NCBI RefSeq assembly: GCF_003018255.1
Contig: NZ_CP027440.1
Source: Escherichia coli
GTDB taxonomy: Bacteria; Pseudomonadota; Gammaproteobacteria; Enterobacterales; Enterobacteriaceae
DNA length: 64,000 nucleotides
Strand: one strand, 5' to 3'
In this document: piece after piece, positions 15,265 through 64,000 of the stretch
Layout of the letters: every line of letters begins with the position of its first letter
How positions within the stretch are numbered: the first letter of the stretch is position 1
The notes under the pieces: model-generated
Databases searched by the model: none
The model's input: the letters and a program-made list of their open reading frames with translations, nothing else
Told to the model about the DNA's origin: nothing
Made by a program: the position numbers and the translations under genes

Positions 15265-15437
15265 GATGAGCATTCAGATAGTGGTTCACGCGCACGGGTT
15301 GCGCACCGCCGGAGTAAGGATTTACTGAGGCTAGCGACGCCATCATAACGAGCAAAAAGTGCGATCGTCAAAGAAGAATCGTGAGGAAATGCTGCATTGC
15401 TGACATTTACGCCAGCAATGCAGCGCAAAAGAACTTT

Positions 15438-58601: not shown

Positions 58602-59731
58602 TATGCGCCCTCCCCAAGACCAGCAGCGATAGCGTCGCCGATTGCTTTCAGCGCCTGTTCAGCATCTGCACCCTGGGCGGTAAAGCGTAGGCGATGACCT
58701 TTCTTAACGCCAAGTGCCACAACTTTCATCAGACTACGTCCGTTTGCCGGTTTGCCGGTACCATCAAGGTTTGTCACGGTAATATCACTGTTAAATTGTT
58801 TAATGGTATTGACCAGCATGGTACCTGGACGAGCATGCAGGCCGTGTTCATTGCGCACCACAAACTCCGCGCTTAACACGTCGTCGGTCGGCGCATCATC
58901 GCTGGTCAGCAGCGCCAGCAACGTTGCCGCATCCGCTTTCAGCAAGCGGTCAGCTTTATTGTCGAGTAACAAATCAGCGAGACGCTTAAGAACCGCAATG
59001 GGCTGATCGTCATTCATCGCCACACTCACCAGCATGGCTGCCGTTTCGCCGTCCACATCAAAAGCATTTGCCGCACGGCTTACCGCAATCGCGCTACGCA
59101 GATTGCCTTCGGCGCTATCGCTCAGCCAGATACCCTGCCCGAGGTTCAGCGGTTGTTCATTGATGGCTTTGGTGACGAAAGTGGCGTCAACTGCCCCCGC
59201 TTCTTTCAGACGCGCAGCGTTCAGCGCCTGAAGAGTCAGCAGATCGCTGGCGACGATATCCAGCGTCAGCATTTCGTTGTCGAGCTTCAGCTGCTCACTC
59301 TGCTTTTCGCCCATCAGCAATGCGCGAAGTTCTTCTGCTGTTGTTGCTGACTTCAGTTGTTCAGCAACGGAATCATCGCTCAGTACGTGGGTCAGCTGGC
59401 GTAGCAGGCCCAGATGTTCATCCGAGCTGGCAGCAATACCGATCGCCACGTACGCTACCTGGCCGTCACCCCAGGTGACGCCTTCCGGGAACTGAAATAC
59501 CTGAACGCCGGTTTTCAGCACCTGATCGCGGGTGTCGGTAGTGCCGTGTGGAATAGCAATACCATTGCCGAGGAACGTTGAGGTTTGCTGTTCGCGCGCC
59601 AGCATGCCATTGACGTAGCCTTCAGCTACATTACCGGCCTGCACCAGCGCCGCAGCGACCTGGCGAATCGCCTCTTCTTTGTCTCCGGCCTTTTCGCCCG
59701 GATGGATGTCCTGTACGGATAACTGGAACAT
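58601..59731 (-). CDS. fruB: PTS fructose-specific EIIA/FPr fusion protein FruB
   Basis: 376-aa ORF with N-terminal IIA(Fru) and C-terminal HPr-like domain (GLHARPG); 1-bp overlap with fruK. Confidence 0.95.
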
Positions 59732-59745
59732 AGTTCTCCTCTCTT

Positions 59746-59766
59746 GCTGAATTGAAACGATTCAGC
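59746..59766. promoter_or_regulatory. Cra (FruR) operator-like palindrome in fruB leader
   Basis: GCTGAATTGAAACGATTCAGC, 15-35 bp upstream of fruB ATG. Confidence 0.55.
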
Positions 59767-59817
59767 TTCTATGAGAAAAAAAGCGCCAACCTGGCTTAGG
59801 GTTAAAGACAAGATCGC

Positions 59818-59833
59818 GCTGAAACGTTTCAAG
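59818..59833. promoter_or_regulatory. Cra (FruR) operator-like site in fruBKA promoter
   Basis: GCTGAAACGTTTCAAG matches the Cra half-site pattern TGAAAC/GTTTCA. Confidence 0.6.
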
Positions 59834-59925
59834 AGAGCATAATACTTTTGTTTCAGCACGCAAGGAAAGCCGTAAAGTTATGAGCAAAAGTTTGATGTGC
59901 TGCACAATTTTTTGTCATTTTTCCT

Positions 59926-59958
59926 AATTGCTGATGGGAAAATCCGTTATCAGCAATT
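59926..59958. promoter_or_regulatory. 10-bp perfect inverted repeat in fruB/setB divergent intergenic region
   Basis: AATTGCTGAT-N13-ATCAGCAATT; no adjacent T-run, so more likely a protein-binding site than a terminator. Confidence 0.3.
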
Positions 59959-60098
59959 TCATTTCAGCAGCGTCAGCAGCCAATCAGCAACAGTGAAATG
60001 GCATTTTGATTATTCGTGGCGCTTTTGATTTCGCTGTCTGTTTATTTTCTGACAAGCAGCGTAAACTCCGCGTCTTCCTCTTCCAGTGATCGACCAGC

Positions 60099-61280
60099 AT
60101 GCATAACTCCCCCGCAGTCACCAGCGCGAAATCGTTTGACCTGACCTCGACGGCGTTTTTAATCGTTGCCTTTCTCACCGGTATTGCGGGCGCTCTGCAA
60201 ACCCCGACACTCAGTATTTTTCTTACCGATGAAGTACATGCCCGTCCGGCGATGGTGGGATTCTTCTTTACCGGCAGCGCTGTCATTGGGATTCTGGTGA
60301 GTCAGTTTCTCGCCGGGCGCTCTGATAAGCGCGGCGATCGCAAATCGCTGATTGTCTTTTGCTGCCTGTTAGGCGTGCTGGCCTGCACCCTTTTTGCCTG
60401 GAATCGCAACTACTTTGTTTTGCTATTCGTTGGCGTCTTTCTTAGCAGCTTTGGCTCGACCGCTAACCCGCAAATGTTTGCCCTTGCCCGTGAACATGCC
60501 GACAAAACCGGACGTGAGGCGGTGATGTTCAGCTCTTTTTTACGCGCTCAGGTTTCACTGGCATGGGTCATTGGCCCACCGCTGGCTTATGCCTTAGCGA
60601 TGGGTTTCAGCTTTACGGTAATGTATCTGAGCGCAGCGGTAGCGTTTATTGTTTGCGGCGTGACGGTGTGGCTGTTTTTACCGTCAATGCAAAAAGAACT
60701 TCCGCTGGCGACCGGCACGGTTGAAGCGCCGCGCCGTAACCGTCGCGATACGCTGCTGCTGTTTGTCATTTGTACATTGATGTGGGGCTCGAACAGCCTG
60801 TACATCATCAACATGCCGCTATTTATTATCAACGAACTGCATCTTCCCGAGAAACTGGCCGGTGTGATGATGGGGACCGCCGCCGGGCTGGAAATCCCGA
60901 CCATGTTGATTGCCGGATATTTCGCCAAACGTCTGGGTAAGCGTTTCTTAATGCGCGTTGCTGCCGTGGGTGGCGTCTGTTTTTACGCAGGAATGCTGAT
61001 GGCGCATTCACCTGTCATTCTGTTGGGCTTGCAGCTGCTAAATGCTATTTTTATTGGCATTCTGGGTGGCATCGGGATGCTCTATTTTCAGGATTTGATG
61101 CCCGGTCAGGCAGGTTCAGCCACCACGCTCTATACCAATACGTCGCGCGTGGGCTGGATCATCGCAGGATCAGTGGCGGGCATCGTCGCCGAGATCTGGA
61201 ATTATCACGCTGTGTTCTGGTTTGCGATGGTGATGATTATCGCCACTCTGTTTTGCTTACTGCGGATTAAAGATGTTTAA
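60099..61280 (+). CDS. setB: MFS sugar efflux transporter SetB
   Basis: 393-aa ORF with 12 TM segments; divergent from fruB. Confidence 0.9.
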
Positions 61281-61531
61281 GGCGCGGTCAGCATTTCCAG
61301 ATCGATAAGCCAGGTCATTGCCTGCTGACGCGAGTTACCGCACATTTCAGCGCTGGCTTGTAAGCCTGCACAGACTTTCGGCCGCAGTGGCGAGGTGAAA
61401 ATTTTACAGCGTTGCTGTTCATCAAGCTGAATGCAGGGCGTATTGGCGGGCTTGCCATCTGGCATACCGGGAATAGGGCTGGAAATCGAAGGGGCAGTGC
61501 AACACGCCCCGCAACCCGGACGGCATTCCAT
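61277..61531 (-). CDS. yeiW: cysteine-cluster protein YeiW (UPF0153, 84 aa)
   Basis: ATG 61531 ([22 protein letters not shown]); CxxC-rich; 4-bp convergent overlap with setB; longer 128-codon track ORF rejected. Confidence 0.7.
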
Positions 61532-61685
61532 ACGTTGTTCTCTTAAGGTTAACCACCGGATTGATGAGCGCGCACAGTACCACCTTTTTTGCACCAGCAA
61601 AAGTGCGAATACCACTTGCCCGAAAGGCCCGTCGCGAGTACTTTGTCGCGATATTTTTGACATTTTCGACTACAGGAATTTTTCG

Positions 61686-62258
61686 ATGCCAAGAGCGAAC
61701 GAAATTAAAAAAGGTATGGTACTGAATTACAACGGCAAACTGCTGCTGGTTAAGGACATTGATATTCAGTCGCCCACTGCCCGCGGTGCCGCTACGCTGT
61801 ACAAAATGCGTTTTTCTGATGTCCGTACCGGGCTGAAAGTAGAAGAGCGTTTCAAAGGAGATGATATCGTTGACACCGTGACGCTGACCCGCCGTTACGT
61901 TGACTTCTCCTATGTCGATGGCAACGAATATGTCTTTATGGATAAAGAAGACTATACCCCGTATACCTTCACCAAAGATCAGATTGAAGAAGAGTTGCTG
62001 TTTATGCCAGAGGGCGGCATGCCGGACATGCAGGTGCTGACCTGGGACGGTCAACTGCTGGCGCTTGAGTTGCCGCAGACCGTTGATCTGGAAATCGTTG
62101 AAACCGCACCAGGCATCAAAGGGGCATCTGCCAGCGCCCGTAACAAACCGGCGACATTGAGCACTGGTCTGGTGATTCAGGTACCAGAATACTTAAGCCC
62201 GGGCGAAAAAATTCGTATCCATATCGAAGAACGCCGTTATATGGGGCGTGCTGACTAA
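61686..62258 (+). CDS. yeiP: elongation factor P-like protein YeiP (EfpL)
   Basis: 190-aa ORF from ATG 61686 ([12 protein letters not shown]), EF-P KOW/OB folds; track ORF from 61431 rejected. Confidence 0.9.
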
Positions 62259-62278
62259 CTTCAGCCGCATGCAGAAAA

Positions 62279-62304
62279 GGGATAGCTCAGGCTGTCCCTT
62301 TTTT
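62279..62304 (+). terminator. rho-independent terminator after yeiP
   Basis: hairpin GGGATAGC-tcag-GCTGTCCC followed by T6 run, about 20 nt after yeiP stop. Confidence 0.75.
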
Positions 62305-62480
62305 AATTTATTATACCAATCTTCTATTTTGCGCTTCCTGAACACCTTACACCCGCAATATTCACTCGTTGATTGATCGCCCTCACACTTCATCGCATTA
62401 ACAATCCAGACCAATTTCAATTGCTGTCATATAACTTTACACTGTCATTGTTAATTAATCGTTACTAAGACGTGACTCCT

Positions 62481-63947
62481 ATGAATACAATCGCCTCCGT
62501 TACGCTCCCGCATCATGTACACGCTCCACGCTACGATCGCCAGCAGTTGCAATCACGTATCGTTCATTTTGGCTTTGGAGCCTTTCACCGCGCTCATCAG
62601 GCGTTACTGACCGATCGTGTGCTGAATGCCCAGGGCGGCGACTGGGGGATCTGTGAAATCAGCTTGTTCAGCGGTGATCAACTGATGAGCCAGCTCCGCG
62701 CACAGAACCATTTATATACCGTGCTGGAGAAAGGGGCGGACGGCAATCAGGCGATAATTGTCGGTGCCGTTCACGAATGCCTTAATGCAAAACTGGATTC
62801 CTTAGCGGCAATTATTGAGAAATTTTGCGAGCCACAGGTGGCAATTGTTTCCCTGACGATTACCGAAAAAGGCTATTGTATTGACCCAGCCACCGGTGCA
62901 CTCGACACCAGCAATCCGCGGATTATTCACGATCTTCAAAATCCTGAAGAACCTCACTCCGCGCCGGGTATTCTCGTCGAAGCACTGAAACGACGCCGTG
63001 AACGCGGCCTTGCACCGTTTACCGTACTCTCCTGCGACAATATTCCCGACAATGGCCATGTGGTGAAAAACGCGGTGCTGGGGATGGCGGAAAAACGTTC
63101 ACCAGAACTCGCCGGGTGGATAAAAGAACACGTCAGTTTTCCGGGAACCATGGTCGACCGTATTGTTCCGGCAGCAACCGACGAATCACTGGCGGAAATC
63201 AGCCAGCATCTGGGGGTGAATGATCCCTGTGCGATTAGCTGCGAACCGTTTATCCAGTGGGTGGTGGAAGATAACTTCGTCGCTGGGCGTCCTGCCTGGG
63301 AAGTCGCAGGTGTACAAATGGTGAATGATGTCCTGCCATGGGAAGAGATGAAACTGCGTATGCTTAATGGCAGCCACTCTTTTCTCGCTTATCTGGGTTA
63401 CCTCTCAGGATTCGCGCACATCAGTGATTGCATGCAGGATCGCGCATTTCGCCATGCCGCCAGAACATTAATGCTGGATGAGCAAGCGCCAACACTGCGA
63501 ATTAAAGATGTCGATTTAACACAATATGCGGATAAGTTAATTGCACGTTTTGCTAACCCGGCGCTGAAACATAAGACCTGGCAAATCGCGATGGATGGCA
63601 GCCAGAAATTACCGCAACGTATGCTGGCAGGTATTCGCATACATCTGGCGCGCGAAACAGACTGGTCGTTGCTGGCATTAGGCGTTGCAGGCTGGATGCG
63701 TTACGTCAGCGGCGTTGATGATGCCGGAAATGCCATTGATGTTCGCGATCCGCTTAGCGATAAAATTTGCGAACTTGTTGCGGGCAGTAGCAGTGAACAA
63801 CGCGTCACCGCCCTGCTTTCCCTGCGTGAAGTTTTCGGTGATGATCTGCCAGATAACCCGCATTTTGTGCAGGCCATCGAACAAGCCTGGCAACAAATCG
63901 CACAATTCGGCGCGCATCAGGCGCTATTAAACACCCTCAAAATTTAA
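62481..63947 (+). CDS. yeiQ: mannitol-dehydrogenase-family oxidoreductase YeiQ
   Basis: 488-aa ORF from ATG 62481 (MNTIASV); N-terminal Rossmann (HFGFGAFHRAH) typical of long-chain mannitol/fructuronate dehydrogenases. Confidence 0.9.
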   Translation: MNTIASVTLPHHVHAPRYDRQQLQSRIVHFGFGAFHRAHQALLTDRVLNAQGGDWGICEISLFSGDQLMSQLRAQNHLYTVLEKGADGNQAIIVGAVHECLNAKLDSLAAIIEKFCEPQVAIVSLTITEKGYCIDPATGALDTSNPRIIHDLQNPEEPHSAPGILVEALKRRRERGLAPFTVLSCDNIPDNGHVVKNAVLGMAEKRSPELAGWIKEHVSFPGTMVDRIVPAATDESLAEISQHLGVNDPCAISCEPFIQWVVEDNFVAGRPAWEVAGVQMVNDVLPWEEMKLRMLNGSHSFLAYLGYLSGFAHISDCMQDRAFRHAARTLMLDEQAPTLRIKDVDLTQYADKLIARFANPALKHKTWQIAMDGSQKLPQRMLAGIRIHLARETDWSLLALGVAGWMRYVSGVDDAGNAIDVRDPLSDKICELVAGSSSEQRVTALLSLREVFGDDLPDNPHFVQAIEQAWQQIAQFGAHQALLNTLKI

Positions 63948-64000
63948 CGATTTCTGCGGTTAAAGCGGATGAAGCTCGCCTTCGTCCGCTCTCCCCTTCT

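Follow-up and report, generated by a model that had tools for sequence, protein, structure and literature searches.

The EF-P-like translation factor EfpL, the product of yeiP (efpL), rescues ribosomes stalled at XP(P)X motifs, as demonstrated experimentally with a protein identical to the one encoded at the locus described here (PMC11611912). The loop arginine of EfpL is reported to be unmodified, the protein is active in vitro without partners, and its levels track those of ribosomal proteins (PMC11611912). The yeiP mRNA has been characterised in its own right as a 0.65-kb transcript whose 5' end is copied, except for U2G and A3U changes, by the model oligonucleotides used to study it, and which is targeted by a 10-23 DNAzyme named DZyeiP69 (PMC6061855); the transcript is classed as A-initiated (PMC8565310). 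The two genes upstream of yeiP, setB and yeiW, are known for a different reason, in that they belong to the 165 core convergent excludons found in at least 50% of 58 MG1655 transcriptomes, while the yeiW-yeiP pair is not among the 16 divergent excludons of the same study (PMC12288877). In MG1655, setB (b2170), yeiW (b4502) and yeiP/efpL (b2171) occupy positions 2263863-2266022 of NC_000913.3, with annotated lengths of 393, 84 and 190 aa, a 4-bp overlap between the stop codons of setB and yeiW, and a 154-bp spacer between the starts of yeiW and yeiP.

The same junction is examined here in a window of 64,000 nucleotides of Escherichia coli DNA (contig NZ_CP027440.1, assembly GCF_003018255.1), the window being the whole stretch that was analysed. 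A 1.4-kb stretch of the window around the junction shows 99.8% identity to E. coli RefSeq chromosomes, and is present as a single copy in 5,413 of 5,426 complete E. coli genomes. Gene coordinates were taken from the list of open reading frames and from RefSeq annotation transferred from NZ_AP045067.1 and MG1655, all of which are in agreement (Table 1). At the protein level, YeiW and YeiP are 100% identical to their MG1655 counterparts, and SetB is 99% identical. The original prediction, made from the sequence alone, had described overlapping stop codons of setB and yeiW on opposite strands and starts of yeiW and yeiP some 150 bp apart, and it was accurate on both points: the two stops share the four bases TTAA, and the divergent ATG codons of yeiW and yeiP are separated by 154 bp (61532-61685), with position 61685 immediately preceding the yeiP ATG. 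The longer alternative frames that it had pointed out, of 128 codons for yeiW and 275 codons for yeiP, are also present in the list of open reading frames. The setB-yeiW-yeiP arrangement is real, already known and annotated, and ordinary. Taken as a whole, the junction is very probably the standard, vertically inherited arrangement of E. coli and the Enterobacteriaceae, in which fruBKA is followed by setB, by yeiW in the convergent orientation, and by yeiP (efpL) reading away from yeiW. Searches against Rfam, with an E-value threshold for positions 59500-64000 and with gathering thresholds for the whole window, returned no RNA families in or near the region.

Table 1. Positions, in window coordinates, of genes, signals and open frames at the setB-yeiW-yeiP junction
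Feature	Position	Strand	Remarks
setB CDS	60099-61280	+	393 aa; MFS sugar efflux transporter; stop TAA 61278-61280
TTAA, 4-bp overlap of two convergent stop codons	61277-61280		read from the sequence
yeiW CDS	61277-61531	-	84 aa; YkgJ-family CxxCxxCC cysteine-cluster protein; stop TAA read 61279-61277; ATG 61531
85-codon extension of the yeiP frame, non-coding	61431-61685	+	ATG 61431; gives the 275-codon ORF
yeiW Shine-Dalgarno-like AAGAG	61540-61544	-	8 nt 5' of ATG; duplex dG -2.9 kcal/mol
44-codon extension of the yeiW frame, non-coding	61532-61663	-	ATG 61663; gives the 128-codon ORF; crosses the spacer and lies inside the DNA of the yeiP 5' UTR
yeiW promoter (predicted), extended -10 TGgTACTGT	61574-61582	-	expected transcription start near 61565-61569
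yeiP promoter	61616-61644	+	-35 TTGCCC 61616-61621; 17-bp spacer; -10 TACTTT 61639-61644; then GC-rich discriminator GTCGCG
yeiP mRNA 5' end (A61651) and 35-nt 5' UTR	61651-61685	+	decoded from published reagents (PMC6061855)
yeiP Shine-Dalgarno CAGGA	61673-61677	+	8 nt 5' of ATG; duplex dG -4.3 kcal/mol
yeiP/efpL CDS	61686-62258	+	190 aa; EF-P-like translation factor; ATG 61686
yeiP intrinsic terminator	62273-62304	+	14-pair stem, then T run; terminator scan
yeiQ	from 62481	+	transferred RefSeq/MG1655 annotation

The identities of the three gene products, as named in the original prediction, were upheld by profile searches. SetB scores 872.6 bits against the NF011587 SetB equivalog model (cut-off 693) and 652.6 bits against the TIGR00899 subfamily model (cut-off 522.3), and has the MFS_1 fold (Pfam PF07690, E=1.6e-43). 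YeiP scores 340.7 bits against the TIGR02178 equivalog (cut-off 264.05) and 305 bits against NF003392 (cut-off 216), placing it in the EfpL family, and shows the three-domain architecture of EF-P, consisting of PF08207 (KOW-like EFP_N), PF01132 (OB EFP) and PF09285 (Elong-fact-P_C), with all three domains above gathering score and inside the annotated 190 aa. In addition, the YeiP translation contains the extended loop SPTARGAAT with an arginine at its tip, as described for EfpL (PMC11611912). In the case of YeiW, the match is to PF03692 (31.9 bits against a gathering cut-off of 23), which makes it a member of the YkgJ/CxxCxxCC family; the match spans residues 2-60 and includes the N-terminal motif C-RPG-C-GA-CC. 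A search of YeiW against the NCBIfam models gave zero matches, and a sequence search of solved structures found no relative of the protein. A sigma-28 SELEX peak listed between fruB, setB and yeiW (PMC5493296) maps within setB.

The presence of longer open frames for both yeiW and yeiP raises the issue of which start codons are used, and conservation of the extensions in orthologues, which had been proposed as a check, was followed by scanning one genome per species. This yielded 80 loci, all from Enterobacteriaceae, with YeiP at 92-100% identity, and starts were compared in the 79 loci where yeiW and yeiP both align from residue 1. The annotated start codons of both genes are ATG in 79/79 loci. 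The frames upstream of them are not conserved for either gene. Upstream of yeiW, the frame stays open for a median of 12 codons, and a stop is met within 16 codons in 46/79 loci; upstream of yeiP, the median is 33 codons, with a stop within 15 codons in 35/79 loci. The spacer itself measures 133-169 bp in most loci, and in 42/79 loci it differs from that of E. coli by a number of nucleotides that is not a multiple of 3. Among close relatives, E. albertii, E. whittamii and two cryptic Escherichia genomes carry a stop 15-16 codons upstream of yeiW that has arisen in two different ways, and E. albertii and E. whittamii have no ATG at codon -85 of yeiP; in many Citrobacter the stop is only 4 codons upstream of yeiW. 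Thus, the extensions are not found open, in frame and start-bearing in orthologues.

Within E. coli, the extensions are almost always intact, as 5316/5412 genomes carry the 61-nt segment of the window unchanged, and the interrupted yeiW extension seen in one orthologous locus deposited as E. coli is absent from the 5,426 complete E. coli genomes. The evidence for disruption therefore comes from comparisons between species, and is weaker than polymorphism within the species would be. The length of the open stretches is within what chance allows. Composition-preserving shuffles of the local sequence give P=0.02 for a run of 85 open codons and P=0.065 for one of 46, such that dozens of open stretches of this kind are expected in a genome of ~4,300 genes. 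Moreover, 101 nt of the 255-nt yeiP extension are antisense to the yeiW coding sequence, the remainder being spacer, and because that coding sequence is conserved, this first part of the frame is itself under constraint.

Signals for translation initiation clearly favour the annotated starts. A Shine-Dalgarno sequence precedes the annotated ATG of yeiP, and a Shine-Dalgarno-like sequence that of yeiW (Table 1); pairing with the 3' end of 16S rRNA is modest to moderate at both. Both are conserved: in an alignment of 70 distinct spacers, ACAGGA at the yeiP site is invariant or nearly so across genera, and an AAGAG or AGAGA motif holds the same position 5' of yeiW across genera. No Shine-Dalgarno pairing with the 16S 3' end is found at the two long starts, where the duplex dG values are +0.1 and +0.9 kcal/mol. 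The original prediction had chosen the short starts by homology while regarding their ribosome-binding sites as lacking strong confirmation; the choice is supported by the results above, and the reservation was fair in so far as the pairing is moderate, but slightly pessimistic given that the pairing is present, conserved, and absent from the long starts.

The protein evidence points the same way. In Pfam searches with the long translations, the CxxCxxCC match begins at residue 46 of 128 and EFP_N at residue 89 of 275, the extensions of both ORFs matching nothing. The YeiP/EfpL equivalog profiles begin at residues 2-3 of the 190-aa protein, and the EfpL structure (PDB 8S8U) aligns to residues 87-275 of the 275-codon ORF. 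Among the matches listed from a set of 5.8 billion proteins, nearly all YeiW homologues are 84 aa in length, forms of 128-155 aa are confined to a few gene calls identical to E. coli, and no homologue from outside E. coli covers the yeiW extension. Direct N-terminal proteomic or start-site ribosome-profiling evidence for YeiW or YeiP was not found in the literature.

For yeiP, the position of the transcript provides a further argument. The native 5' sequence inferred from the published oligonucleotides is AUAUUUUU, and its DNA form, ATATTTTT, has a unique match in the window, at 61651-61658. The two arms of DZyeiP69 are complementary to 61709-61718 and 61720-61730, and G61719, between them, is the purine at the cleavage site; if the name is read to mean that 61719 is nucleotide 69 of the transcript, the 5' end falls at 61651, in agreement with the AUAUUUUU match. 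An mRNA that begins at 61651 and includes the whole T run of the intrinsic terminator downstream of yeiP would measure ~0.65 kb, which is the published size of the transcript. Relative to this mapped 5' end, the annotated ATG is 35 nt downstream and the long yeiP ATG 220 nt upstream, and since the 35-nt leader contains no in-frame start, the ATG at 61686 is the sole possible start on the 0.65-kb mRNA. The yeiP 5' end thus excludes the long start on this transcript.

A hexamer scan identified a promoter at a position consistent with the mapped 5' end (Table 1), and CTTGCC, the yeiP -10 hexamer and CGCGATA around the start are invariant or nearly so in the alignment of 70 distinct spacers. A consensus promoter scan gave no site at threshold in the region, and both this promoter and that of yeiW are weak matches to the consensus; they were located by means of the published yeiP 5' end and conservation. 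In the favoured reading, this sigma-70-type promoter fires at A61651 and gives a monocistronic mRNA of ~0.65 kb, translated from ATG 61686 by way of CAGGA and ending at the hairpin of the intrinsic terminator. Promoters under growth-rate or stringent control typically carry a GC-rich discriminator such as the one that follows the yeiP -10. Control of this kind may apply to yeiP, which would fit the tracking of ribosomal proteins by EfpL (PMC11611912).

The inverted repeat GTCGCGA...TCGCGAT (61631-61652) was considered as a terminator for read-through from setB and set aside, because in most genera the stem is conserved over no more than 4 bp (CGCG) and conservation of the sequence is not accompanied by covariation; it is instead read as promoter, discriminator and transcription start site.

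The transcript of yeiW is less directly placed. The region upstream of the gene drives vanillin-inducible GFP (PMC5291986), and no transcription start site data for yeiW were found in the literature. Of the promoter-like sites in the window upstream of yeiW, the extended -10 TGgTACTGT scores highest, and it is the best and only positionally conserved candidate, occurring in homologous alignment columns, inside a conserved block, in 13 other genera sampled. Most likely, to judge from the sequence, yeiW is driven from this site with a leader of ~35 nt, AAGAG, and the annotated ATG at 61531. If so, the long start at ATG 61663 would lie ~95 nt upstream of the yeiW transcript. In this arrangement, the 154-bp spacer would hold a back-to-back pair of sigma-70-type promoters, the yeiW one being predicted, from which yeiW and yeiP are transcribed in opposite directions. 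A MarA/SoxS/Rob box in the spacer was considered in light of the vanillin induction and rejected by eye, the spacing from GCAC to the AAA tract being wrong.

These observations can be weighed against three other readings of the locus. It could be supposed that extended isoforms are made, namely a 128-aa YeiW from ATG 61663 and/or a 275-aa YeiP from ATG 61431, on minor upstream transcripts and perhaps under special conditions, given that the ORFs are open, begin with ATG and are uninterrupted in almost every E. coli genome, and that a few automatic gene calls adopt the long YeiW. That possibility is extremely unlikely in view of the stops and frameshifts that break the extensions elsewhere in Escherichia and across most other genera, the lack of a Shine-Dalgarno sequence at either long start, the position of the long yeiP ATG upstream of an mRNA of just 0.65 kb, the family profiles that start at the annotated N-termini with no Pfam domain in the extensions, and the 190-aa length of the functional EfpL that was crystallised (8S8U; PMC11611912). 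Neither long start lies on a transcript with a ribosome-binding site, with the yeiW half of this statement depending on the predicted promoter. The short annotated starts of yeiW and yeiP are correct, and the ORFs of 128 and 275 codons are open by chance, do not code for protein, and are artefacts of taking the longest frame.

Nor does the divergent orientation of yeiW and yeiP, which is shared with epmB-efp, a known divergent pair (PMC12288877), provide much reason to suspect a functional link between the products, for instance one in which the EF-P-like factor is a target or partner of YeiW, much as efp-epmB links EF-P to its modifier. The pair is kept across the Enterobacteriaceae, Erwinia and Tatumella with a spacer of ~130-190 bp, even where setB has been lost or no longer overlaps, and GC-rich discriminators appear to follow both promoters, all of which would suit such a link. 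Against it, a locus with EfpL at 81% identity has the gene directly beside fruB with yeiW absent, and yeiW is not adjacent in two loci with EfpL at 60% identity, one of which has an unrelated neighbour; tblastn found no yeiW remnant at any of these three EfpL loci. A locus with EfpL at 46% identity lies on a contig too short for comparison of synteny and was left out. The loop arginine reported as unmodified and the activity of EfpL in vitro without partners also speak against such a link, and the study that reported them makes no mention of yeiW (PMC11611912). A functional link between yeiW and efpL is possible but unsupported, and we consider it highly improbable. The overlap of setB and yeiW invites a third reading, that of a functional excludon in which transcribing either gene would reduce the output of its partner, whether by transcriptional interference or because RNase III cuts the sense/antisense duplex, and in which the overlap has been selected. 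The structural basis is present: the stops overlap at the palindrome TTAA, and a terminator scan of both strands returned no intrinsic terminator-like site at the junction, so that transcription of either gene must continue antisense into its neighbour, as expected of convergent genes whose transcripts overlap. The pair is on the core list of convergent excludons, vanillin induces yeiW (PMC5291986), and the 4-bp overlap, as TTAA or TTAG, is retained in 57/63 Enterobacteriaceae loci with an adjacent complete setB. The exceptions mostly have a gap of 19-32 bp (25-32 bp in Klebsiella-titled loci and one Enterobacter-titled locus), with a 41-bp overlap at one locus, and outside this set the gap is 48 nt in Erwinia, while setB is absent in Tatumella and several other loci; the overlap has therefore been lost without apparent consequence in some lineages. 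Furthermore, transcript overlap was scored by a coverage rule only, no data on reciprocal expression of this pair were found in the literature consulted, and conservation of the overlap is equally explained by constraint on both C-termini together with vertical descent. A functional excludon is accordingly unlikely, though it deserves some weight, and C-terminal constraint on both genes with vertical descent explains the conservation of the overlap. The more elaborate combination, in which stress induction of yeiW by vanillin and other aromatic aldehydes silences the SetB exporter by antisense transcription and, at the same time, YeiW serves as a cofactor or as a redox or metal sensor on the EF-P-like factor, is improbable when both parts are taken jointly.

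With the ordinary, vertically inherited arrangement preferred, the significance of the locus is mostly one of annotation quality, in that yeiW and yeiP/efpL are confirmed to start where RefSeq and the K-12 annotation place them, and the experimentally known 5' end of the yeiP mRNA and its conserved promoter are now placed on window coordinates. Such placement is useful because efpL encodes a characterised translation factor and the yeiP mRNA is a standard substrate of RppH studies.

Compared with the systems described previously, the locus departs in few respects. The known EfpL (PDB 8S8U; Sieber et al. 2024, PMC11611912) is a 190-aa chain whose residues 2-190 equal annotated YeiP residue for residue, residue 1 being left out of the alignment; there are no differences at the protein level, and the known protein does not include the 85 codons of the upstream ORF. 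YeiW shares the domain of the YkgJ/UPF0153 CxxCxxCC family (PF03692), which is putatively zinc- or iron-chelating, and its RefSeq name is YkgJ family cysteine cluster protein. With the MG1655 convergent excludons identified by ExcludonFinder (PMC12288877), setB-yeiW shares an intergenic distance of zero and no intervening terminator, but the coding sequences overlap by only 4 bp, and mutual repression is putative for this pair. The yeiP mRNA, whose 5'-end-dependent decay depends on RppH, DapF and Cmk (PMC6061855, PMC8565310), corresponds to the transcript placed here, as its 5' sequence, the target of the DNAzyme at nucleotide 69 and the Northern probe each match the window uniquely, with no differences found. 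Lastly, the MG1655 setB-yeiW-yeiP locus is reproduced in the window with identical gene order, strands and 4-bp overlap of stops, strain-level SNPs being the sole differences between the two.

The -10 element of the yeiP (efpL) promoter is flanked by two copies of the heptamer GTCGCGA, spaced 14 bp apart, each of which contains the palindrome TCGCGA, with the last base of the second copy being the transcription start site. The sequence CGCGAGTA...CGCGATA shows no variation among 70 distinct enterobacterial yeiW-yeiP spacers. The region of the pair is read here as the -10 element, discriminator and transcription start site of yeiP; alternatively, it may represent the site of a regulator. A terminator scan additionally picks out a hairpin here, with a weak terminator-like score.

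Between the divergent promoters of yeiP and, as predicted, of yeiW lies an inverted repeat, TTTTGC-ACCA-GCAAAA. In the spacer alignment, its T-tract and A-tract are retained in most genera, with a spacing between the tracts that is not constant, and the repeat is missing from the genera with short spacers. The repeat could correspond to UP-element-like A/T tracts, or to a binding site. The sole Rfam match across the 64-kb window is full-length, to the cis-regulatory motif RF03039 'Peptidase-S11 RNA' (72.8 bits, gathering score 34.8).

Coordinates of the features discussed
Feature	Source	Coordinates	Strand
GTCGCGA, first copy	window	61631-61637	
GTCGCGA, second copy	window	61645-61651	
Inverted repeat	window	61587-61602	
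Stop-creating G-to-T	window	61577	
setB start region (ATG 60099)	window	60079-60101	
yeiQ start region (GTG 62472, ATG 62481)	window	62472-62483	
RF03039	window	15269-15349	-
yeiW-yeiP spacer haplotype	L004	2862-2922	
setB-yeiW, partial matches	L044	1402-2773	
setB/yeiW overlap region	L048	2450-2745	
fruB-efpL spacer, setB and yeiW absent	L086	2026-2500	

Start codon assignment is also ambiguous for yeiQ, where a GTG codon opens the longest ORF and the RefSeq start is an ATG, with weak Shine-Dalgarno pairing at both (+1.2 and -1.3 kcal/mol, respectively). This ambiguity is of the same kind as the choice of starts for yeiW and yeiP. For the setB ATG, Shine-Dalgarno pairing is practically nil (dG -0.3 kcal/mol).

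The arrangement of the locus differs among the genomes compared. In one Enterobacterales genome (L086; EfpL 81% identity), neither setB nor yeiW is present at the locus; fruB directly adjoins efpL across a 475-bp spacer, and a cobW/yeiR-like gene follows 3 nucleotides after efpL. In the case of Leclercia adecarboxylata NCTC13032 (L044), the tblastn matches to setB and yeiW are only partial (residues 1-230 and 22-84, respectively), which may mean that the genes are frameshifted or pseudogenes, or that the assembly is in error. An extended convergent overlap of setB and yeiW, 41 bp in length and accompanied by a YeiW of 87 amino acids, is found in Intestinirhabdus alba (L048) alone among the compared loci.

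The spacer haplotype of SCPM-O-B-8794 (L004), a genome deposited as E. coli, is carried by none of 5,426 complete E. coli genomes. It differs from the window at three positions, two of which, including the stop-creating change, are common to Escherichia sp. E1V33 and E. whittamii. The genome is probably a member of a cryptic clade of Escherichia.
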